Source: Escherichia coli (lineage in GTDB: Bacteria > Pseudomonadota > Gammaproteobacteria > Enterobacterales > Enterobacteriaceae). Taken from it: a stretch of DNA of 64,000 bases. A model generated the notes under the pieces. The model saw only the letters and a program-made list of their open reading frames with translations. It had not been told where the DNA came from and searched no databases. Of the stretch, positions 4,358-38,986 are shown in pieces; the stretch's first letter is position 1; every line of letters begins with the position of its first letter. Location: the NCBI RefSeq assembly GCF_041886205.1, contig NZ_CP169029.1. One strand, given 5' to 3'. The translations under genes and the position numbers were made by a program.

Positions 4358-6319
4358 ATGCGGTTGTTTATTGCCGAAAAACCGAGTCTGGCGCGCGCCA
4401 TTGCTGATGTCCTGCCCAAACCGCACCGTAAAGGCGATGGCTTTATCGAGTGCGGTAATGGTCAGGTGGTGACCTGGTGTATCGGTCACCTGCTTGAGCA
4501 GGCGCAGCCAGACGCCTACGACAGCCGCTATGCGCGCTGGAATCTTGCGGATTTGCCGATTGTCCCGGAAAAGTGGCAATTACAGCCCCGACCCTCCGTG
4601 ACCAAACAACTTAATGTCATCAAACGCTTTTTGCATGAAGCCAGCGAAATTGTTCATGCCGGAGACCCGGATCGCGAAGGGCAATTGCTGGTGGATGAAG
4701 TGCTGGACTATCTGCAACTGGCACCGGAAAAGCGCCAGCAGGTGCAGCGTTGCTTGATAAACGACCTGAACCCGCAGGCGGTTGAGCGGGCGATCGACCG
4801 TCTTCGTTCCAACAGTGAGTTTGTGCCATTGTGCGTTTCTGCGCTGGCGCGAGCGCGTGCCGACTGGTTATACGGCATCAATATGACCCGTGCGTATACC
4901 ATTCTCGGTCGCAATGCCGGTTATCAGGGCGTACTTTCCGTGGGACGCGTGCAGACACCCGTGCTCGGGCTGGTGGTGCGCCGCGATGAAGAGATTGAAA
5001 ACTTCGTGGCGAAAGACTTCTTTGAAGTCAAAGCACATATCGTGACACCTGCCGATGAGCGGTTTACCGCTATCTGGCAACCGAGCGAAGCGTGTGAACC
5101 GTACCAGGATGAAGAAGGGCGCTTGTTACATCGTCCACTGGCGGAGCATGTGGTTAACCGCATTAGTGGTCAACCGGCTATTGTCACCAGCTATAACGAT
5201 AAACGGGAATCAGAATCCGCGCCGCTGCCGTTTTCGCTTTCGGCGTTGCAGATTGAAGCGGCAAAACGCTTCGGTCTGAGCGCGCAGAACGTGCTTGATA
5301 TCTGCCAGAAGCTGTACGAAACGCACAAGCTAATCACTTATCCGCGTTCCGATTGTCGCTATTTGCCAGAAGAACATTTTGCCGGACGCCACGCGGTGAT
5401 GAATGCCATCAGTGTTCATGCACCAGATCTGTTGCCGCAGCCAGTGGTAGATCCAGATATACGCAACCGCTGTTGGGATGACAAAAAGGTCGATGCGCAC
5501 CACGCCATCATCCCGACCGCACGGAGTTCTGTGATCAACCTGACGGAGAACGAAGCGAAGGTCTATAACCTGATTGCCCGTCAGTACTTGATGCAGTTCT
5601 GCCCGGATGCGGTGTTCCGCAAGTGTGTTATCGATCTGGACATTGCCAAAGGCAAATTTGTCGCTAAAGCGCGTTTTCTTGCTGAAGCAGGCTGGCGCAC
5701 GCTGTTAGGCAGCAAAGAGCGCGATGAAGAAAACGACGGCACGCCACTGCCTGTGGTGGCGAAAGGCGATGAGTTGCTGTGTGAAAAAGGTGAAGTGGTA
5801 GAGCGGCAAACCCAGCCGCCGCGCCATTTTACCGATGCAACACTGCTTGCGGCAATGACCGGGATCGCGCGCTTTGTGCAGGACAAAGATCTGAAAAAGA
5901 TCCTTCGTGCGACCGATGGTCTGGGGACAGAGGCAACGCGTGCCGGGATTATTGAACTGTTGTTCAAGCGTGGTTTCCTGACCAAAAAAGGGCGCTATAT
6001 CCACTCCACCGACGCCGGAAAAGCGCTATTCCATTCGCTGCCGGAGATGGCCACGAGACCGGACATGACCGCGCACTGGGAATCGGTGCTGACGCAAATC
6101 AGTGAAAAGCAGTGTCGCTATCAGGACTTTATGCAGCCGCTGGTGGGGACGCTATATCAGCTTATTGATCAAGCCAAACGTACGCCGGTGCGGCAGTTTC
6201 GCGGCATAGTGGCTCCGGGCAGTGGTGGCAGTGCTGATAAGAAAAAGGCTGCACCGCGTAAACGTAGTGCGAAAAAAATTCCGCCAGCAGATGAAGCCGG
6301 AAGCGGGGCGATAGCGTAA
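4358..6319 (+). CDS. topB: DNA topoisomerase III, 653 aa
   Basis: ORF track 4301..6319; internal start [20 protein letters not shown] (ATG 4358) 4 bp after the selD stop; type IA topoisomerase TOPRIM N-terminus. Confidence 0.92.
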
Positions 6320-6446
6320 GCGAGCGAATCTTTCGTGCTATTCGAGTCATATTCTGAAATATCCAGCGGATCAAGAAAATTCGTTGGATATTTTTTTTGC
6401 ATGGATAAAATTATTGCCTCTAAAGTATGTAATAACAGGGAATGTG

Positions 6447-7478
6447 ATGAAAAAAGTTTTATTACAAAACCATCCAGGGAGTGAAAAGTATTCTTTTAAC
6501 GGCTGGGAAATATTTAATATTAATTTAGATCAGGTGATTAAAGAAAATAAACCTATGCTGCTTTGTAAGTGGGGGTTTTATATAACCTGCACTTTCGCTG
6601 CACTGTTAGTTTGTGCAGGTCTTACAGCAAATGGTTTAAGTGATAAAGGCAAAGTGTCCGCTGGCTATGCTTTTCTTTATCTTTTAATTATGGCGGGTTT
6701 GGTTATTCGAGCTGGCTTCAGAGCAAAAAAAGAACAGTTACACTATTATAAGGCAAAGGGTATTGAGCCGCTGAGTGAAGATAAGTTGCAGGCATTGCGG
6801 CTGATTGCACCCAATCGATTCTATAACCAACAGTGGTCTGAATCGCTTGAATTTTGGCCACGTAAGCCTGCATTGGGAACGGATACTTTTCGCTATCATG
6901 TTTTACGTTTTGAATCTGTCGGAGTGACTCGCCAGCGTCGCAAGTCTTTGGATGACAGCTGGGGGATAGTCGATAGCCAAAGTTATATCGCTTTAATGGA
7001 ATATTTTCTTTCAGGTGAGCATGGCTCAAATGCATTTAAAGAACACATGGAAGAAAATCCGCAAGAAGTGATTGCCATGTTAAGTAAGGTTAAGGAATTT
7101 CCTGAGGATTATCTTTATGACTGTACCATCCGTCGAATTGATAAGTCATCTCCACGCTTGATATGGGCTGCCGAGATAGCATGGATAATAGGCTTAACCT
7201 GCTCGACATACCAGAATGGAACGATTGAGGAAGATCTGGCCTGGCACTATATTTTGACTGCCTCGAAAAAAGCCTATGAACTCTTTGAGAGCGAAGAAGA
7301 GTTCCATCGAAACAGTTTGATGGGGTCATGGTACTGGCATGCTTTCTGCTATCGAATGAAACTCATGGACGCTGAGCTGGAAGAAGGTCATCTCTACGAC
7401 GTGGAAATTCTGGAACATTACCGAAAGAAGTGTCGTTGGCCCATTAAAAACCTTCCCTGGGGCACATCCTCAAACTGA
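6447..7478 (+). CDS. ynjI: Inner-membrane protein YnjI (DUF1266 family)
   Basis: ORF track 6384..7478; ATG 6447 is preferred because of the aggga Shine-Dalgarno 6 nt upstream (start is uncertain, GTG 6444 or ATG 6384 are possible); visibly AT-rich compared with flanking genes. Confidence 0.75.
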   Translation: MKKVLLQNHPGSEKYSFNGWEIFNINLDQVIKENKPMLLCKWGFYITCTFAALLVCAGLTANGLSDKGKVSAGYAFLYLLIMAGLVIRAGFRAKKEQLHYYKAKGIEPLSEDKLQALRLIAPNRFYNQQWSESLEFWPRKPALGTDTFRYHVLRFESVGVTRQRRKSLDDSWGIVDSQSYIALMEYFLSGEHGSNAFKEHMEENPQEVIAMLSKVKEFPEDYLYDCTIRRIDKSSPRLIWAAEIAWIIGLTCSTYQNGTIEEDLAWHYILTASKKAYELFESEEEFHRNSLMGSWYWHAFCYRMKLMDAELEEGHLYDVEILEHYRKKCRWPIKNLPWGTSSN

Positions 7479-7508
7479 CCTCTTTGCCGGGGGCGCTGCG
7501 CTTGCCCT

Positions 7509-7580
7509 GCCTACATTAGAGCGTAACTGCAATGAATTGTGCCCATTTGTAGGCCTGATAAGCGTAGCGCCATCAGGCAT
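7509..7580. repeat. REP/BIME-like palindromic element between ynjI and gdhA
   Basis: gtaggcctgataagcgtagcgccatcaggc at 7550-7579 matches the E. coli REP consensus; preceded by an inverted gcctac...gtaggc segment. Confidence 0.7.
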
Positions 7581-7587
7581 TTACAAC

Positions 7588-8931
7588 TTAAATCACACCC
7601 TGCGCCAGCATCGCATCGGCAACCTTCACAAAACCGGCAATGTTCGCGCCCTGCACGTAGTTGGTTTGCTCACCTTCACCACCATGCTCAACACAGGCAT
7701 GGTGGATATCCAGCATGATGTGATGCAAACGTGCGTCAACTTTCTCGGCTTTCCAGCCCAGGCGCGCAGCGTTTTGCGCCATTTCAAGGCCTGACGTTGC
7801 TACACCGCCAGCATTAGCCGCTTTACCCGGTGCAAACAGTACGCCTGCCTGCTGGAACAGTTCAGTCGCTTCGATGGTGGTCGGCATATTTGCCCCTTCG
7901 GCGACGGCTTTAACGCCATTGGCGATAAGCTGATGCGCGGCGTCAACATCCAGTTCGTTCTGGGTGGCGCAAGGCAGGGCGATATCAACCGGTACAGACC
8001 ACGGCTGTTGGCCTTCGAGATAGACCAGACCAAATTCTTTGGCGTAATCAGCCACTCGACCATCGCGGCTGGCTTTGATTTCGATAAGGCGTGCCAGTTT
8101 CTCTTTCGTGAATCCGCTTTCATCAACTACAGTGCCGCTGGAGTCTGACGCAGTGATCACACGAGCACCAAATTCCATCGCTTTTTCGATAGCGTACTGG
8201 GCGACGTTGCCGGAGCCAGAAACGGAAACGCGCATCCCTTCAAAACCCATACCGTGGCGTTTTAACATTGCTTCTGTGAAATAAACCAGACCGTAGCCGG
8301 TAGCTTCCGGGCGAATAAGACTGCCGCCAAATGAAAGGCCCTTACCGGTGAAGACGCAGGAGGTATTGTTGGAGAGCTTTTTCATCATCCCCGCCATAAA
8401 GCCGACTTCACGACCACCAACCCCGATATCACCTGCCGGAACGTCGGTATCCGCGCCCAGGTGGCGATACAGTTCAGTCATCAGCGCCTGGCAAAAACGC
8501 ATCACTTCACCTTCGCTTTTTCCTTTCGGATCGAAATCGCTGCCGCCTTTACCACCGCCCATCGGCAGAGTAGTCAGGGCATTTTTGAAGGTTTGCTCGA
8601 AGCCGAGGAATTTGAGAATGGAGAGGTTAACTGACGGATGGAAGCGCATACCGCCTTTGTACGGGCCGATGGCAGAGCTGAACTGCACACGCCATGCACG
8701 GTTGACCTGTACCTGATTGCGATCATCAACCCATACCACGCGAAACTGGATCACGCGCTCCGGTTCAACCAGACGCTCCAGTAATGACATCTGGCGATAT
8801 TTTGGATTTTGTTCAAGAAAAGGCCAGAGTGTGGTCATTACTTCACGAACGGCTTGCGCGAACTCGGTTTGATTCGGGTCGCGCTTTTGGACATGGTTGA
8901 GGAATGACTCCAGAGAATATGTCTGATCCAT
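7588..8931 (-). CDS. gdhA: NADP-specific glutamate dehydrogenase, 447 aa
   Basis: ORF track 7588..8931; MDQTYSLESFLNHVQKRDP...; GGGKGG active-site motif present. Confidence 0.95.
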   Translation of the reverse strand: MDQTYSLESFLNHVQKRDPNQTEFAQAVREVMTTLWPFLEQNPKYRQMSLLERLVEPERVIQFRVVWVDDRNQVQVNRAWRVQFSSAIGPYKGGMRFHPSVNLSILKFLGFEQTFKNALTTLPMGGGKGGSDFDPKGKSEGEVMRFCQALMTELYRHLGADTDVPAGDIGVGGREVGFMAGMMKKLSNNTSCVFTGKGLSFGGSLIRPEATGYGLVYFTEAMLKRHGMGFEGMRVSVSGSGNVAQYAIEKAMEFGARVITASDSSGTVVDESGFTKEKLARLIEIKASRDGRVADYAKEFGLVYLEGQQPWSVPVDIALPCATQNELDVDAAHQLIANGVKAVAEGANMPTTIEATELFQQAGVLFAPGKAANAGGVATSGLEMAQNAARLGWKAEKVDARLHHIMLDIHHACVEHGGEGEQTNYVQGANIAGFVKVADAMLAQGVI

Positions 8932-9898: not shown

Positions 9899-10519
9899 GT
9901 GCTAGACCGCCATCTTCATCCCCGGATTAAACCGTTGTTGCATCAGTGCGTGCGGGTTCTTGATAAACCGGGCATTACGCCAGATGGTTTAACATTAGTG
10001 GGATTTGCCATCGGCGTGCTGGCTCTGCCGTTTCTGGCTCTGGGCTGGTATCTGGCGGCGCTAGTCGTCATTTTGTTGAACAGGCTGCTTGATGGTCTGG
10101 ACGGTGCGCTGGCGCGGCGCAGAGGGCTTACCGACGCGGGCGGCTTTCTCGATATTTCTCTCGATTTTCTCTTTTACGCGCTGGTGCCGTTTGGTTTTAT
10201 TCTTGCTGCACCGGAGCAAAATGCCCTGGCAGGCGGCTGGCTGCTGTTTGCGTTTATCGGTACGGGCAGCAGTTTTCTCGCCTTTGCTGCACTGGCAGCG
10301 AAACATCAGATTGATAACCCCGGTTATGCACATAAGTCGTTTTACTATCTGGGGGGATTAACCGAAGGCACAGAAACGATCTTACTGTTTGTGCTGGGAT
10401 GTTTATTCCCTGCATGGTTTGCGTGGTTTGCGTGGATCTTCGGTGCGTTGTGCTGGATGACAACCTTTACGCGGGTGTGGAGTGGGTATCTGACGCTGAA
10501 GTCGCTCCAGCGTCAGTAA
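9899..10519 (+). CDS. ynjF: CDP-alcohol phosphatidyltransferase family inner-membrane protein, 206 aa
   Basis: ORF track 9893..10519; GTG 9899 preferred (aaggag 5 nt upstream); multi-pass membrane protein. Confidence 0.8.
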   Translation: MLDRHLHPRIKPLLHQCVRVLDKPGITPDGLTLVGFAIGVLALPFLALGWYLAALVVILLNRLLDGLDGALARRRGLTDAGGFLDISLDFLFYALVPFGFILAAPEQNALAGGWLLFAFIGTGSSFLAFAALAAKHQIDNPGYAHKSFYYLGGLTEGTETILLFVLGCLFPAWFAWFAWIFGALCWMTTFTRVWSGYLTLKSLQRQ

Positions 10520-28848: not shown

Positions 28849-29049
28849 TGAACCCCTCCAGACAGAAAAGACAAAACTTCCTTAAAGCTAACCCGTTGCC
28901 ACTGAAACGACAAGCGACAGCGGGCTGAATGGTGGTTAAAACGTCATACAGGAATCCTCTGAAAGCGGAGCCGTTTCGTTCATGGGCTTGAAAAAGCGCC
29001 CAATGTATTCCAGGCTTATCTAACACGCTGATAAACAAGAGGACGGAAT

Positions 29050-29388
29050 ATGAACAAGAATATGGCAGGAATTCTGAGTGCAGCGGCGGTATTAACCATG
29101 CTGGCGGGTTGTACGGCTTATGATCGTACCAAAGACCAGTTTGTACAGCCTGTGGTGAAAGACGTCAAAAAAGGCATGAGCCGGGCGCAGGTTGCACAAA
29201 TTGCGGGTAAACCTTCGTCTGAAGTGAGCATGATCCATGCTCGTGGTACTTGCCAGACCTACATCCTGGGTCAACGTGATGGTAAAGCAGAAACCTACTT
29301 TGTCGCGTTAGATGATACTGGACATGTCATCAACTCCGGTTATCAGACCTGTGCTGAATACGACACTGATCCACAGGCTGCGAAGTAA
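29050..29388 (+). CDS. osmE: Osmotically inducible lipoprotein E, 112 aa
   Basis: ORF track 29050..29388; lipobox LAGC. Confidence 0.92.
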
Positions 29389-29420
29389 TCACTTCGTCTG
29401 AAAGCTTGAGTAACAACGGA

Positions 29421-29447
29421 AACCGGCCATTGCGCCGGTTTTTTTTG
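29421..29447 (+). terminator. Intrinsic terminator of osmE
   Basis: accggccattgcgccggt hairpin followed by a T8 run. Confidence 0.8.
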
Positions 29448-29686
29448 GTCTGAGTTCTTAATTATCTTCGCGAATTATTTGCCCGAAATGTGAAGAGGGT
29501 CATAACCGCAGGTCAAGGAGAGACGATTTATAAGGTCAAAGAAATACTATTGCTCAGGTCTATACCGTATACTCCTTTCAGCCACAAAAAAAGTCATGTT
29601 GGTTTCGCAAGTTACCCAGAGCATGGAAGCAGGTTAAGGCTTGCGGAGTGTCTGGCTGACAGATAATCGTCGATGAGGGCAGTTTT

Positions 29687-30007
29687 ATGGAAAAGAAACA
29701 CATTTATCTGTTTTGTTCTGCGGGCATGTCTACCTCTTTACTGGTATCAAAAATGCGCGCACAGGCAGAAAAATATGAAGTTCCGGTCATTATTGAAGCA
29801 TTTCCGGAAACACTGGCTGGTGAAAAAGGTCAGAATGCCGATGTCGTGTTATTAGGGCCGCAGATTGCTTATATGTTGCCCGAAATCCAGCGTTTGTTAC
29901 CCAACAAACCGGTTGAAGTAATTGACTCGCTGCTTTATGGCAAAGTCGATGGTTTAGGCGTGCTTAAGGCTGCGGTTGCAGCGATTAAAAAAGCCGCAGC
30001 AAATTAA
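29687..30007 (+). CDS. chbB: PTS chitobiose-specific EIIB, 106 aa
   Basis: ORF track 29687..30007; phospho-Cys context [10 protein letters not shown]. Confidence 0.93.
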
Positions 30008-30091
30008 TTTATTTTAAATTTTCCCGTCAAAGAGTTATTTCATAAATCAATACCGCAATATTTAAATTGCGGTTTTTAAGGGTATTTTTCT

Positions 30092-31450
30092 ATGAGTAAT
30101 GTTATTGCATCGCTTGAAAAGGTACTCCTCCCTTTTGCAGTTAAAATAGGAAAGCAGCCACACGTTAATGCAATCAAAAATGGCTTTATTCGCTTAATGC
30201 CGTTAACCCTTGCGGGGGCCATGTTTGTATTAATTAACAACGTTTTTCTAAGCTTTGGGGAGGGGTCGTTTTTTTATTCCTTAGGTATTCGCCTCGACGC
30301 CTCAACCATTGAAACACTTAATGGCCTGAAAGGTATTGGCGGCAACGTATATAACGGAACATTAGGGATAATGTCTTTAATGGCACCGTTCTTTATTGGC
30401 ATGGCGCTGGCAGAAGAGCGTAAAGTCGATGCGCTGGCGGCGGGGTTGTTATCCGTTGCAGCATTTATGACCGTCACCCCATATAGTGTCGGTGAGGCCT
30501 ATGCGGTTGGCGCAAACTGGTTAGGTGGGGCGAATATCATCTCCGGGATTATTATTGGCCTGGTGGTGGCAGAAATGTTTACCTTTATTGTCCGCCGCAA
30601 TTGGGTCATTAAACTGCCCGACAGCGTACCTGCTTCAGTATCGCGTTCCTTCTCGGCATTAATTCCCGGCTTTATTATTCTTTCCGTGATGGGGATTATT
30701 GCCTGGGCGTTGAATACCTGGGGCACCAACTTCCATCAGATCATTATGGATACCATCTCAACCCCACTGGCATCGTTGGGTAGCGTGGTGGGCTGGGCCT
30801 ATGTGATCTTTGTTCCACTGCTCTGGTTCTTCGGTATTCATGGCGCGCTGGCGCTGACCGCACTGGACAACGGCATTATGACGCCGTGGGCGCTGGAAAA
30901 TATCGCGACCTATCAGCAATATGGTTCCGTCGAAGCGGCGCTGGCAGCCGGTAAGACCTTCCATATCTGGGCCAAGCCGATGCTGGACTCCTTTATTTTC
31001 CTCGGTGGCAGTGGTGCGACTTTAGGCCTGATCCTGGCTATCTTTATCGCATCTCGCCGTGCTGATTATCGTCAGGTGGCAAAACTGGCGCTGCCGTCCG
31101 GCATCTTCCAGATTAACGAACCGATTCTGTTTGGTCTGCCAATTATCATGAACCCGGTGATGTTTATCCCGTTTGTACTGGTACAACCGATTCTGGCGGC
31201 AATCACCCTCGCAGCGTACTACATGGGCATTATTCCTCCGGTGACCAATATTGCACCGTGGACCATGCCAACCGGTCTGGGAGCCTTCTTTAACACCAAC
31301 GGTAGCGTCGCCGCATTGCTGGTCGCACTCTTCAACCTTGGCATCGCAACGTTAATTTATCTGCCCTTTGTTGTGGTGGCTAACAAAGCACAAAATGCGA
31401 TTGATAAAGAAGAAAGCGAAGAAGATATCGCTAACGCCCTGAAATTTTAA
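30092..31450 (+). CDS. chbC: PTS chitobiose-specific EIIC permease, 452 aa
   Basis: ORF track 30092..31450; polytopic membrane protein. Confidence 0.93.
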
Positions 31451-31500
31451 TCGATGCCGGTACGGGTAATCGTGCCGGTAAGAAGAGAGAGGAACGATGT

Positions 31501-31851
31501 ATGATGGATCTCGATAATATTCCTGATACGCAAACAGAAGCTGAAGAGCTGGAAGAAGTGGTGATGGGGCTTATCATCAACTCCGGACAAGCGCGCAGCC
31601 TGGCGTATGCGGCACTGAAACAGGCGAAGCAGGGCGATTTTGCTGCAGCAAAAGCCATGATGGATCAGTCACGGATGGCATTGAATGAAGCGCATCTGGT
31701 ACAGACGAAACTGATTGAAGGCGATGCGGGCGAAGGTAAGATGAAAGTGAGTCTGGTGCTGGTCCACGCTCAGGATCATTTAATGACGTCCATGCTTGCG
31801 CGTGAACTGATTACTGAATTAATTGAGCTTCATGAAAAACTGAAGGCATAA
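31501..31851 (+). CDS. chbA: PTS chitobiose-specific EIIA, 116 aa
   Basis: ORF track 31501..31851. Confidence 0.92.
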
Positions 31852-31858
31852 GGAGTCG

Positions 31859-32701
31859 ATGATGCAGCCAGTGATTAACGCGCCGGAAATTGCCACTGCC
31901 CGAGAACAGCAGTTGTTTAATGGCAAAAACTTCCATGTGTTTATCTATAACAAAACTGAGAGTATCAGCGGGCTGCATCAGCACGACTATTATGAATTTA
32001 CTCTGGTATTAACCGGGCGTTATTTCCAGGAGATTAACGGTAAGCGCGTGTTACTGGAACGGGGCGATTTTGTTTTTATTCCGTTAGGTTCGCACCATCA
32101 AAGTTTTTATGAGTTTGGTGCCACGCGTATATTGAACGTTGGGATCAGTAAACGCTTTTTTGAGCAGCATTACCTGCCGTTGTTGCCTTATTGCTTTGTC
32201 GCTTCGCAGGTATACCGGACCAATAACGCTTTTCTCACCTATGTGGAAACAGTGATTTCTTCATTGAATTTCCGCGAAACAGGGCTGGAAGAGTTTGTTG
32301 AGATGGTTACTTTTTATGTCATTAACCGTTTACGTCATTACCGCGAAGAACAGGTGATTGATGATGTACCGCAGTGGCTGAAAAGTACGGTAGAAAAGAT
32401 GCATGATAAAGAGCAGTTTAGTGAATCGGCGCTGGAGAATATGGTGACGTTGTCAGCCAAATCACAGGAATATTTGACGCGAGCGACTCAACGATATTAT
32501 GGCAAAACACCAATGCAGATTATTAATGAGATCCGTATTAATTTTGCCAAAAAACAACTGGAAATGACCAACTATTCCGTGACGGATATTGCGTTTGAGG
32601 CCGGTTATAGTAGCCCGAGTTTGTTTATTAAAACGTTTAAGAAATTAACGTCCTTTACGCCTAAGAGCTATCGTAAGAAATTGACTGAATTTAATCAGTA
32701 A
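31859..32701 (+). CDS. chbR: AraC-family dual regulator of the chb operon, 280 aa
   Basis: ORF track 31859..32701; C-terminal AraC-type HTH. Confidence 0.92.
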
Positions 32702-32805
32702 GTCGTTATACCTGACAATTCACATATCTGTCCTGTTGCTGGATTATTTATGTCCGGGGGGGCAGATATGCCAGATATCAGTATTCTGTACTGAAGGGAG
32801 AAATT

Positions 32806-34158
32806 ATGAGCCAGAAATTAAAAGTCGTCACTATTGGTGGCGGGAGCAGCTATACCCCGGAGTTACTGGAAGGATTTATTAAGCGTTATCACGAATTGCC
32901 GGTCAGCGAATTATGGCTGGTGGATGTCGAAGGTGGTAAAGCGAAACTGGATATTATTTTCGATCTCTGCCAACGGATGATTGATAACGCTGGCGTCCCG
33001 ATGAAGCTTTATAAAACGCTGGATCGCCGCGAAGCATTGAAAGATGCTGATTTCGTTACTACCCAACTGCGCGTTGGCCAATTACCGGCGCGTGAACTGG
33101 ATGAACGTATTCCATTAAGTCATGGTTATCTTGGTCAGGAAACCAACGGCGCGGGCGGTTTGTTTAAAGGTCTGCGTACCATTCCGGTGATTTTTGACAT
33201 CGTAAAAGATGTCGAAGAACTTTGTCCGAATGCATGGGTGATTAACTTCACTAACCCGGCGGGAATGGTCACTGAAGCCGTTTATCGTCATACCGGATTT
33301 AAACGCTTTATCGGCGTGTGTAATATTCCGATCGGCATGAAGATGTTTATTCGCGATGTTCTGATGCTGAAAGACAGCGATGATTTATCTATCGATCTGT
33401 TCGGCCTCAACCATATGGTGTTCATTAAGGATGTGCTGGTAAATGGCAAGTCGCGCTTTGCCGAATTGCTTGATGGTGTGGCGTCAGGGCAGTTAAAAGC
33501 GTCCTCTGTAAAAAATATTTTCGATCTGCCATTTAGTGAGGGCTTAATTCGTTCGTTAAATCTGCTGCCATGTTCTTATCTGCTGTATTACTTCAAGCAG
33601 AAAGAGATGCTGGCTATTGAAATGGGCGAATACTACAAAGGCGGCGCACGAGCACAGGTAGTACAGAAAGTCGAGAAACAACTTTTTGAGCTGTATAAAA
33701 ATCCGGAGTTGAAAGTTAAGCCGAAAGAACTGGAACAGCGCGGTGGGGCTTATTACTCTGATGCAGCGTGCGAAGTGATCAACGCTATCTACAACGACAA
33801 GCAAGCTGAACATTACGTTAATATCCCGCATCATGGGCATATTGATAATATTCCGGCAGACTGGGCGGTAGAAATGACCTGTAAGCTGGGGCGCGATGGC
33901 GCGACGCCACATCCGCGCATTACGCATTTCGATGATAAAGTGATGGGGCTGATTCACACCATTAAAGGCTTCGAGATTGCTGCCAGCAACGCCGCACTTA
34001 GCGGAGAATTTAACGATGTGTTACTGGCGCTAAACCTTAGTCCGTTGGTGCATTCCGATCGCGATGCTGAGCTGCTAGCACGCGAGATGATTCTGGCGCA
34101 CGAGAAATGGCTGCCAAATTTTGCCGACTGCATCGCAGAGCTTAAAAAAGCACATTAA
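32806..34158 (+). CDS. chbF: Glycoside-hydrolase family 4 6-phospho-beta-glucosidase, 450 aa
   Basis: ORF track 32806..34158; N-terminal NAD-binding GGGSSYTPE. Confidence 0.93.
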   Translation: MSQKLKVVTIGGGSSYTPELLEGFIKRYHELPVSELWLVDVEGGKAKLDIIFDLCQRMIDNAGVPMKLYKTLDRREALKDADFVTTQLRVGQLPARELDERIPLSHGYLGQETNGAGGLFKGLRTIPVIFDIVKDVEELCPNAWVINFTNPAGMVTEAVYRHTGFKRFIGVCNIPIGMKMFIRDVLMLKDSDDLSIDLFGLNHMVFIKDVLVNGKSRFAELLDGVASGQLKASSVKNIFDLPFSEGLIRSLNLLPCSYLLYYFKQKEMLAIEMGEYYKGGARAQVVQKVEKQLFELYKNPELKVKPKELEQRGGAYYSDAACEVINAIYNDKQAEHYVNIPHHGHIDNIPADWAVEMTCKLGRDGATPHPRITHFDDKVMGLIHTIKGFEIAASNAALSGEFNDVLLALNLSPLVHSDRDAELLAREMILAHEKWLPNFADCIAELKKAH

Positions 34159-37893: not shown

Positions 37894-38181
37894 GGATTAC
37901 ATACCTCCCGGTTTTGCCGGGAGTTACATGGCCTGAAATTCTGTATTTCGTTGCTACATTCATTCAAACCACCTGTAACAAAAAGCTGCCTTTGACGAGC
38001 TATTGCTATAAATAAGTGATCTTTTTTCTTTAATTGTTTATTTATTTTAAAATGGTTAAGTTTTGCTAATCATTATGAGCTATTTTTGATAGTTTATCCT
38101 GTGGCGTCGCTCTTAAACTTATATTGTAAATTACTTAGATTTAAATGAGATAATAATTTTGTTAACAATATGAGGTGGGAG

Positions 38182-38986
38182 ATGTTTTCTACAAACTTAA
38201 TACAGAGTAATTATGGTGATTTAAATATTAAAAGTCTGGCTTTTGACTCTTTTAAAGAAAGGCTTGAGTCTACCATGGCGGCACTCACTTTCTTTATATC
38301 AACGGGTCAATGTGACTGCGATGAAATAGCAGAATCAAACTTCAATCGTATGATTGCCTATATGTCTAACATTAACTATGATGCCTCAAAGCCAGGAGCG
38401 CCAGCACTTAGTTTTGATACGTATCTGCAGGACAATGTTAAATATAGAGTGATAATTAATAATCTTTATGGCAGTGAGTTTCGGATAAGAGGTATTAATG
38501 AGAATTTTGTTGGGATGGATTTTACCTGTGAATTCCGACCCGAAAAAATGACGAATATTGATCAATATAAAAAACAGGTTGGTTATTCATTATTTAAGGA
38601 CTATATACTATGAAAAAAATTATATACATCCTGCCGGGAGCATTTTTGCTGCGATTCAAAAAAATGAGAGTCTCCTAAAGTTTCCTTCGATAATATCAAT
38701 GCTTAATATCAATCTTCTTTTTAATCCACTAAATCTTCCGGGAATGGGAAGTGGTGTGCTTGAAGATATTATGAGTATTCCAGATAGTTCACTGAGAAAA
38801 CGTCTCGGGTATGAGGTTTTAAGCTTCTCACTACAGGCACATTCATTGAGCCAGGAATGTATTGATAAGTTGGACATTTTTTTCGCTGACGATCTGTTTA
38901 AATATGAGGCAGTATGCATCGCCGCGATGGAACATTTAAAAAGTAAAGCAACGGCCCCTATACAAAACGGACCGTTGCCAGCATAA
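38182..38986 (+). pseudogene. ydjO: ydjO carrying a +1 frameshift (two overlapping ORF pieces)
   Basis: ORF track 38170..38613 (frame A) and 38558..38986 (frame B) overlap; the span from MFSTNL (38182) to the stop is 805 nt, exactly one nucleotide more than needed for the 267-aa YdjO I recall for K-12. Confidence 0.6.

Follow-up and report, generated by a model that had tools for sequence, protein, structure and literature searches.

The gene ynjI lies between topB and gdhA in the stretch of 64,000 nucleotides of Escherichia coli DNA (contig NZ_CP169029.1) that was analysed here and is called the window below. Its coding sequence, annotated by RefSeq at positions 6447-7478 on the plus strand, encodes a protein of 343 amino acids (WP_000756904.1). 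It represents a rare and strongly diverged allele, hereafter the window type, residing in a replacement hotspot with at least four states; both the allele and the hotspot had previously gone unnoticed.

The locus forms a local and clear dip in GC content. In 400-bp windows, GC drops from 0.53-0.57 in topB to 0.365-0.435 over positions 6201-7400 and returns to 0.53-0.57 in gdhA. The GC content of the interval 6330-7480 is 0.410, compared with a mean of 0.503 for the 64-kb window (standard deviation 0.044 in 1-kb windows), and just 2.9% of the same-length windows in the 64 kb are equally AT-rich. The ynjI gene has a GC content of 0.418 and a GC content at third codon positions (GC3) of 0.404 (z = -1.8 and -1.3, respectively), with 0.354 for the topB-ynjI intergenic region and 0.54 for the ynjI-gdhA intergenic region. 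According to the RefSeq gene table of the genome matching the window, ynjI ranks fourth from the bottom among 62 annotated genes, after the ydjO pseudogene (0.323), the espL1/arpB pseudogene (0.393) and chbR (0.418), a value in the low tail of the distribution but no extreme outlier. The AT-rich islet proposed between topB and gdhA in an initial annotation of the window is thus borne out by sliding-window GC and gene rank, as are the two others proposed at cedA-ydjO and arpB, which contain the genes of lowest GC content.

The ynjI promoter and the YnjI protein

Three candidate start codons, at positions 6384, 6444 and 6447, had left the beginning of ynjI uncertain, and all three are present at these positions. 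The ATG at 6447 is the RefSeq start, is universal among orthologs and is preceded by the motif AGGGA 6 nt upstream; the frame upstream of it is interrupted by stop codons in three orthologous loci. The GTG at 6444 is not conserved (GTT or TTC in three orthologs) and the TTG at 6384 falls within the inferred -35 element, upstream of the inferred transcription start. Ortholog comparison combined with the RefSeq annotation resolves the uncertainty, and translation of ynjI is predicted to start at ATG 6447.

BglJ-RcsB strongly activates ynjI transcription in E. coli K-12 through a mapped site, and this activation is lost when the predicted activator box is mutated (Salscheider et al., PMC3950696). 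The promoter of the window is 98% identical to that of K-12 and contains the sequence TATTCTGA (6350-6357, plus strand), the sole match within 6300-6470 to the published core wwTTCykA of the box, which we placed by this motif and not by the figure of the paper. The block ATTCTGAAATATCCA is invariant in seven of seven orthologous loci, including those of other species. A putative core promoter can be read at positions 6384-6411 on the same strand, composed of a -35 element TTGGAT (6384-6389), a 16-nt spacer and a -10 element TAAAAT (6406-6411) that is conserved in six of the seven loci. Transcription would start around position 6418, since adding the published distance of 65-68 bp to the box centre (about 6353) leads to 6418-6421, 7 nt past the -10 element (PMC3950696). 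The window therefore carries the hallmarks of the BglJ-RcsB regulon, i.e., the box and a -10 element at the right distance from it, the activation itself being a K-12 result. A generic sigma-70 promoter scan made no call for the ynjI promoter, whose -35 element matches at just three of six positions, as expected for an activator-dependent promoter.

A terminator scan detected at positions 6356-6398 (plus strand) a 16-bp AU-rich hairpin with a 7-nt loop (6356-6394) and a run of eight T (6391-6398). This hairpin is conserved across seven loci, which represent at least four species. The RNAalifold consensus for the seven loci retains all 16 pairs, with the outer 10 invariant and the inner ones exhibiting two compensatory double changes as well as consistent single changes. 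The hairpin and its T-run overlap both the BglJ-RcsB box and the -35 element, which means that a terminator-like element occupies the same stretch as an activator site. From its structure and conservation, it is probably the intrinsic terminator of selD-topB, although it could alternatively correspond to a palindromic protein-binding site. Rfam gave no match on positions 6200-7700 at E-values up to 1.

The level of K-12 ynjI mRNA rises moderately in a delta-hns stpA mutant and strongly in the presence of constitutive BglJ (PMC3950696). The locus resembles in this respect the H-NS-repressed loci bgl, leuO, chiA and yidL, with which it shares an AT-rich gene and promoter, a BglJ-RcsB box at the canonical distance and some increase in expression in hns stpA mutants (PMC3950696). 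It has been classed with loci at which BglJ-RcsB behaves like a classical activator and the hns/stpA effect is only moderate, in contrast to chiA and yidL, which are fully derepressed without H-NS (PMC3950696). Silencing by H-NS, as had been proposed for ynjI, is consequently an overstatement: an influence of H-NS and StpA is real, but in K-12 the effect is only moderate, while activation by BglJ-RcsB is strong (PMC3950696). "Dampened by H-NS/StpA and activator-dependent" describes K-12 ynjI better than "silenced" and, by analogy, may also apply to the window allele.

The predicted membrane-anchored DUF1266 protein was confirmed by a profile match and by two hydrophobic segments. The Pfam domain DUF1266 (PF06889) was detected at amino acids 167-338 with 71.4 bits (cut-off 27; E = 1.4e-19), over profile positions 1-175 of 175, and the hydrophobic segments are located at amino acids 39-61 and 70-92, approximately. 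The protein of the window displays the complete YnjI-type architecture, with an N-terminal LQNHPG-like motif, two hydrophobic helices, the juxtamembrane motifs EQ..YY and WSETLE.WP and the C-terminal DUF1266 domain. We aligned 63 full-length relatives of YnjI, with the window protein in the first row; 62 of them match DUF1266, and conservation is complete or reaches at least 90% at residues Q7, N8, Q97, Y100, W130, L134, P138, W240, W266, F280 and P332. The AlphaFold2 model computed from this alignment (mean predicted local distance difference test score 91.9, predicted template modelling score 0.89) comprises an N-terminal peptide with the near-invariant LQNHPG, a helical hairpin of two transmembrane (TM) helices connected by a 10-residue loop, a long helix extending TM2 and an all-helical DUF1266 domain. 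The short TM loop and the basic residues following TM2 suggest, on this model, that the protein is anchored in the inner membrane and has its N and C termini in the cytoplasm. The model has no convincing fold match among the solved structures of the Protein Data Bank.

A diverged allele in a multi-state slot

We surveyed 5,426 complete E. coli genomes for ynjI. A K-12-type gene, about 68% identical to that of the window, is present in 3,487 of them, compared with only 12 for the window-type gene body (98.6-100% identity), and no ynjI with 80-95% identity to the window was found in these genomes. The other 1,927 genomes (36%) have no ynjI, which is an accessory gene.

The slot between topB and gdhA exists in at least four states: K-12-type ynjI, window-type ynjI, empty, or occupied by an island encoding Hsp70 and J-Sel1 proteins. 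In the empty haplotype (1,514 genomes), topB and gdhA are separated by 76 bp of sequence that is unique to this haplotype, including a repetitive extragenic palindromic (REP) element other than that of K-12; this state is therefore not a simple deletion of the K-12 arrangement. A divergent variant of the empty site, 84% identical to the common empty junction, was observed in E. coli HS-02 (L026:1140-3108), where topB is annotated as frameshifted. The island haplotype is present in about 366 genomes (about 7%), CFT073 among them, and other states in about 47. The island of E. coli GF130 (L027:18219-24888), located in place of ynjI, is 6.7 kb long with 41.4% GC and encodes a secreted hypothetical protein of 266 amino acids, a protein of the Hsp70 family and two J-domain/Sel1-repeat proteins. 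In a literature search, we found no paper describing the topB-gdhA hotspot.

The left edge of the polymorphic region is the 3' tail of topB (6170-6319, plus strand; stop codon at 6317-6319), each slot haplotype having its own version of the last 150 nt or so of this gene. The length of topB is 1962 nt in ynjI-bearing genomes, 1956 nt where the slot is empty and 1947 nt next to the Hsp70 island. Identity between the window and the empty haplotype decreases over positions 6100-6299 to 0.86 and then 0.70, and topB of GF130 aligns over its first 1814 nt only. The lysine-rich C-terminal tail of topoisomerase III (6100-6319) thus varies with the slot, and the polymorphism reaches into a conserved housekeeping gene. 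Between an empty-site strain and the window, the synonymous divergence (dS) is 0.27 for topB and 0.11 for both selD and gdhA, values that would indicate a deep coalescence around the slot indel.

The window is 100% identical to E. coli LHM10-1 (isolated from a pig in China) over both a 1.6-kb query and a 7.6-kb locus. Among the five window-type carriers that we compared, two belong to the clone of the window, and the three others (GF4-3, S3 and ET201) differ by 1-2% over 6-kb flanks, indicating that the allele is present in at least four backgrounds. Its internal diversity is 0.5-1.4%. In strain S3, an insertion sequence, IS621, lies in the REP region between window-type ynjI and gdhA (L016:7059-8039), interrupting the alignment, and a K-12-type ynjI is itself interrupted by IS1 in strain JMF1 (L004:3729-4426).

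Compared with the K-12 strain J53, the window exhibits 97-100% identity in selD, topB, the topB-ynjI intergenic region and roughly the initial 30 nt of ynjI. Differences specific to the window begin at 6476, which opens the putative left recombination zone between the two allele classes (6476-6590, plus strand), and the first 114 nt of ynjI are 89% identical in total. The deeply diverged core, as delimited by sliding identity, extends from about 6560 to 7483 (plus strand), with 56-75% identity to K-12 per 100 bp, and identity rises to 99% again from position 7484. Over 912 nt of the gene body the two alleles are 68.3% identical, and their proteins, of 343 amino acids in the window and 346 in K-12 (WP_000756910.1), share 66% identity. 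For the same pair of strains, topB, gdhA and selD have dS values of 0.06-0.10 and a nonsynonymous divergence (dN) of about 0.003, whereas the silent sites of ynjI are saturated and its dN is 0.21. The proportion of synonymous differences between the two ynjI alleles reaches 0.76 and so exceeds the Jukes-Cantor limit (with the Nei-Gojobori method, proportions above 0.75 are an artefact of heavy divergence), and 61% of the four-fold degenerate sites differ. An ordinary allele would have diverged like its neighbours; judged by its sequence, ynjI of the window is positionally equivalent to the K-12 gene but phylogenetically appears to be a xenolog.

On the left of the diverged core, ET201 is K-12-like up to about position 6555 and window-like from about 6590. 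Since the breakpoints of ET201 and of the window are different, the conserved 5' end would have been the site of at least two independent left crossovers between the two allele classes, flanking a 30-nt stretch common to both. On the right, the alignment places the boundary at positions 7455-7483 (plus strand), which comprise the 3' end of ynjI, including the stop codon at 7476-7478, and a gap of 17 bp in the alignment with K-12. The last 30 nt or so of the window gene, including the stop codon and the 17-bp gap, match Pseudocitrobacter and locus L005 with a single mismatch, while K-12 and cryptic Escherichia have in common a longer, different 3' end with three extra codons. The following ynjI-gdhA intergenic region (7484-7587), which contains REP-like palindromic units, is common to both allele classes and 99% identical to that of K-12.

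In summary, window-type and K-12 (b1762) ynjI are alike in slot, strand, promoter region, architecture (LQNHPG motif, two TM helices and DUF1266) and GC content (0.41-0.42), but the window allele branches outside the clade formed by K-12 and Pseudocitrobacter (see below), has another 3' end and was detected in 12 genomes as opposed to 3,487. Findings obtained with K-12 YnjI are not automatically transferable to other strains, of which 36% lack the gene, 0.2% encode a protein that is only 66% identical and about 7% harbour the Hsp70/J-Sel1 island instead.

Age of the locus and origin of the window allele

YnjI has very few relatives. Only eight clusters were retrieved at E <= 1e-5 among 5.8 billion proteins, in which the closest relative of the window protein outside of E. 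coli is 69-70% identical. A scan of 100,044 species representatives with two strict peptide patterns detected ynjI only in Pseudocitrobacter vendiensis, in Escherichia sp. MOD1-EC7003 and in one probable contaminant contig. A 926-bp sequence attributed to Bacillus coahuilensis m4-4 (L014) carries a K-12-type ynjI fragment and is almost certainly E. coli contamination. All placeable ynjI orthologs are located between topB and gdhA, and the same slot, promoter block and hairpin are present in five further loci.

The K-12-type gene has diverged together with its flanks. Between K-12 and cryptic Escherichia, dS is 0.29 for ynjI, 0.39 for topB, 0.17 for selD and 0.73 for gdhA; between K-12 and P. 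vendiensis, the corresponding values are 1.18, 1.22, 1.02 and 1.33. The match between ynjI and flank dS suggests that ynjI has resided in the topB-gdhA slot since before the split between Escherichia and Pseudocitrobacter. The ratio dN/dS is 0.06-0.19 for all ynjI pairs and segments, which shows that YnjI is under purifying selection, and the gene's rate of evolution is about double that of the adjacent genes (dN of 0.097 versus 0.04-0.08 between K-12 type and Pseudocitrobacter).

The window allele does not follow this pattern. Its silent sites are saturated relative to all other alleles and its dN values of 0.17-0.21 are about twice the distance from K-12 to Pseudocitrobacter. In 99-100% of four-point bootstrap replicates, it falls outside the group formed by the K-12 type and Pseudocitrobacter, whether the whole gene or only the DUF1266 domain is analysed. 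Evidence on acquisition is thus mixed at this locus, the K-12-type gene co-diverging with its flanks while presence of a gene in the slot is polymorphic and the window allele is phylogenetically incongruent. We found no genuine plasmid or phage copies of ynjI in the plasmid and phage sequences searched: one plasmid "hit" turned out to be a mislabelled 4.8-Mb chromosome and one phage "hit" a 1.9-kb unannotated fragment. No integrase, tRNA or direct-repeat scars and no mobility genes were observed at the ynjI locus.

Taken together, these data make it probable that ynjI is an AT-rich single-gene accessory locus in a multi-state slot and that the gene body in the window has been swapped for a deeply diverged allele. 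The gene would have resided in the slot since before the Escherichia/Pseudocitrobacter split, under purifying selection and AT-rich in every lineage (GC3 of about 0.42), and would be transcribed from its own promoter, dependent on BglJ-RcsB and partly dampened by H-NS/StpA, directly after the terminator-like hairpin that probably ends the selD-topB transcript. Starting at about codon 10-40 and reaching as far as the stop codon, the coding body would then have been replaced by homologous recombination with a diverged version of ynjI originating from an unsampled enterobacterial lineage that branched outside the Escherichia and Pseudocitrobacter clade. The crossovers may have occurred in the conserved 5' end of ynjI and at or beyond the stop codon and the REP region. 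Subsequent exchange with ordinary E. coli sequences may have trimmed the imported tract until only a segment too divergent for recombination was left. We infer both the recombination mechanism and this trimming from the pattern of identity along the locus, and replacement by a homolog from an unsampled enterobacterial lineage is the most economical reading of the data.

Replacement hotspots and xenologous allele replacement by flank homology are well-known phenomena, for instance at O-antigen, flagellin and restriction-modification loci. The ynjI slot resembles them in that its flanks are conserved, its alternative contents exclude one another and are deeply diverged, and its boundaries are sharp, with mosaic junctions. 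In contrast to these systems, the swap at ynjI involves two versions of one small gene, with no sign of diversifying selection and no mobility genes. The ynjI locus is a new example of known phenomena: a replacement hotspot, a xenologous allele replacement and an AT-rich activator-dependent locus.

Several observations weigh against an import of the window allele. The TM/linker segment alone gives an ambiguous placement in the four-point bootstrap, and a neighbour-joining tree with very distant outgroups supports the same node at only 39.5%. Four-fold sites differ at proportions of 0.53-0.61 in all deep comparisons, i.e., near saturation, so that silent sites give no time depth; the deeper position of the window allele is mainly supported by amino-acid distances, and faster protein evolution in its lineage could inflate these. 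No donor was found either in the protein-cluster search or in the species-representative scan, whose strict patterns may miss orthologs, so that the import is deduced from the gene tree. The species distribution could reflect either vertical inheritance with losses or an ancient spread through homologous flanks. Finally, an internal diversity of up to 1.4% in several backgrounds would also fit a long-standing polymorphism.

The last point leads to an unlikely alternative, an ancient balanced polymorphism in which both ynjI classes have been kept in Escherichia since before the Pseudocitrobacter split and the window happens to carry the rare one. The presence of the window type in at least four backgrounds, with a diversity similar to ordinary E. 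coli diversity, would fit this scenario, as would the recombination between allele classes at the 5' end with its two left breakpoints, the failure of searches to find a donor species and the multi-allelic nature of the whole slot. However, it requires persistence over a flank dS of 1.0-1.3 of an allele whose present frequency is 0.2%, the single cryptic Escherichia detected and both Pseudocitrobacter-like loci carry alleles of the K-12 clade only, and the low dN/dS gives no sign of diversifying selection.

The low GC content of ynjI had been taken in the initial annotation as the signature of an old horizontal acquisition, the gene being viewed as an acquired island that has kept its foreign AT-richness and is probably silenced by H-NS. 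This explanation accounts for the AT-richness of the interval (0.41 versus 0.50), for the patchy distribution of the gene (three loci in 100,044 species representatives, absence from 36% of E. coli), for the AT-richness of the other slot occupant and for the moderate derepression in the hns stpA mutant (PMC3950696). Nevertheless, the GC3 of ynjI is 0.40-0.43 in five loci (the window, K-12, cryptic Escherichia, P. vendiensis and a Pseudocitrobacter-like contig from a Hadza gut), compared with 0.54-0.66 for the flanking topB and gdhA in the same loci, and the K-12-type gene has co-diverged with these flanks to a dS of about 1.2, its silent sites being fully replaced with GC3 unchanged. Because silent sites have turned over completely (dS above 1) without amelioration, the low GC content is a stable, maintained property of the locus, neither a fading foreign mark nor the remnant of a recent import. 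Purifying selection, the dedicated activator-dependent promoter conserved across species, the lack of mobile copies and of scars of integration, and an hns stpA effect that is just moderate also argue against an island of this type. Low GC is therefore not supported as a sign of acquisition, and the explanation, which we consider improbable as a whole, is largely refuted as a causal argument. The AT-richness may be due to regulation that relies on the binding of H-NS/StpA, to weak selection combined with AT-biased mutation or to reduced biased gene conversion. With a silent-site GC of about 0.42 across lineages next to neighbours at 0.54-0.66, ynjI provides a clean test case for what maintains AT-richness.

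The composition of the gene gives no hint of the swap that we favour: both allele classes have nearly the same GC content (0.418 in the window and 0.413 in K-12), so that the apparently horizontally derived gene body is invisible to compositional analysis. Scans for foreign genes should take this into account, since GC alone is misleading at ynjI, where the ordinary allele is a long-term resident and the true foreign replacement is compositionally hidden.

Rapid evolution in place from a K-12-type allele under positive or diversifying selection, as in surface or immunity proteins, would explain why the divergence is limited to the coding body, ends at the stop codon and is highest in the DUF1266 domain, but its probability is close to nil: it is effectively refuted by the synonymous divergence (proportion of 0.76 and 61% of four-fold sites, against a flank dS of 0.06-0.10), dN/dS is well below 1 in every segment, no intermediates exist among the 5,426 genomes and the 3' end, including the 17-bp indel, matches Pseudocitrobacter.

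DUF1266 proteins and the Hsp70 lead

E. coli K-12 encodes two other proteins with an annotated DUF1266 domain, YbeR and YbeU. With 235 amino acids, these proteins are too short to contain the N-terminal motif and the TM hairpin of YnjI, and they are too distant from it to be detected by tblastn. In the ybeQ-ybeR-djlB-ybeT-ybeU-djlC-hscC locus (E. coli J53, L029:4738-12561), ybeR and ybeU share a 4-nt overlap with the downstream J-protein genes djlB and djlC, respectively, next to two Sel1/tetratricopeptide-repeat genes, ybeQ and ybeT, and to hscC, which encodes an Hsp70. In contrast to this translational coupling to J-protein genes, ynjI is monocistronic and without chaperone neighbour. The organisation of the ybe locus suggests a functional link between DUF1266 and the HscC-type chaperone system.

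Based on these overlaps near hscC and on the presence of an Hsp70/J-Sel1 set as alternative occupant of the ynjI slot, one may tentatively guess, with more doubt than confidence, that YnjI is a membrane-tethered protein-protein adaptor, possibly tied to the membrane-anchored J-proteins DjlB and DjlC and to the Hsp70 HscC. Several results speak against such a role. The association between DUF1266 and chaperones was seen within E. coli only; neither Hsp70/J-domain genes nor conserved neighbours were found around four distant full-length YnjI-like proteins (P0008, P0010, P0012 and P0018); and none of ten proteins of 394-493 amino acids with a C-terminal DUF1266 domain is fused to a J-domain, one of them carrying a Cu-amine-oxidase N-terminal domain. 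Two short DUF1266 proteins are encoded on contigs too short for a reading of their neighbourhood.

A broader and much less probable idea is that the slot holds interchangeable modules of one membrane-associated Hsp70 system, in which DUF1266 proteins would be partners or client-selecting adaptors for tail-anchored J-proteins, under balancing selection in some biological conflict (e.g., with phages or membrane-acting toxins). If this were true, strains would carry at the slot either a gene for a membrane-tethered DUF1266 protein or a full set of an Hsp70 and two J-Sel1 proteins. A comparison with PADLOC-DB gave no match for the window YnjI, only a marginal 13-bit match for K-12 YnjI, no meaningful match for YbeR and YbeU, and weak matches, located in repeat regions, for the proteins of the Hsp70/J-Sel1 island. 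The only paper on DUF1266 found in our literature search deals with a different locus tag, EC042_RS03510 of strain 042, which we take, judging by the tag number only, to be a ybe-locus paralog. The co-location of DUF1266 and J-protein genes, together with the Hsp70/J-Sel1 island in the slot, is a testable lead both for a protein family that is uncharacterised and for the HscC system, which is poorly understood.

A few additional features were observed elsewhere in the window. The 3' end of ynjF, next to ynjE (10304-10503), forms a second deep two-haplotype patch, at which the window and K-12 on the one hand and GF4-3, S3, ET201 and APEC O2-211 on the other differ by 13-15% over 200 bp, compared with 0-3% in the surroundings. 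The two "genes" of lowest GC content in the window, ydjO (37972-38775; 0.323) and espL1 (arpB in K-12; 46114-48011; 0.393), are both pseudogenes in this strain, the former with an internal stop codon and the latter frameshifted. Further low-GC stretches, beyond the three islets proposed initially, are located at 29000-33700 (osmE and the chb operon, with chbR at 0.418), 41870-42410 (yniB, 0.421) and 59150-60950 (selO-hemP).

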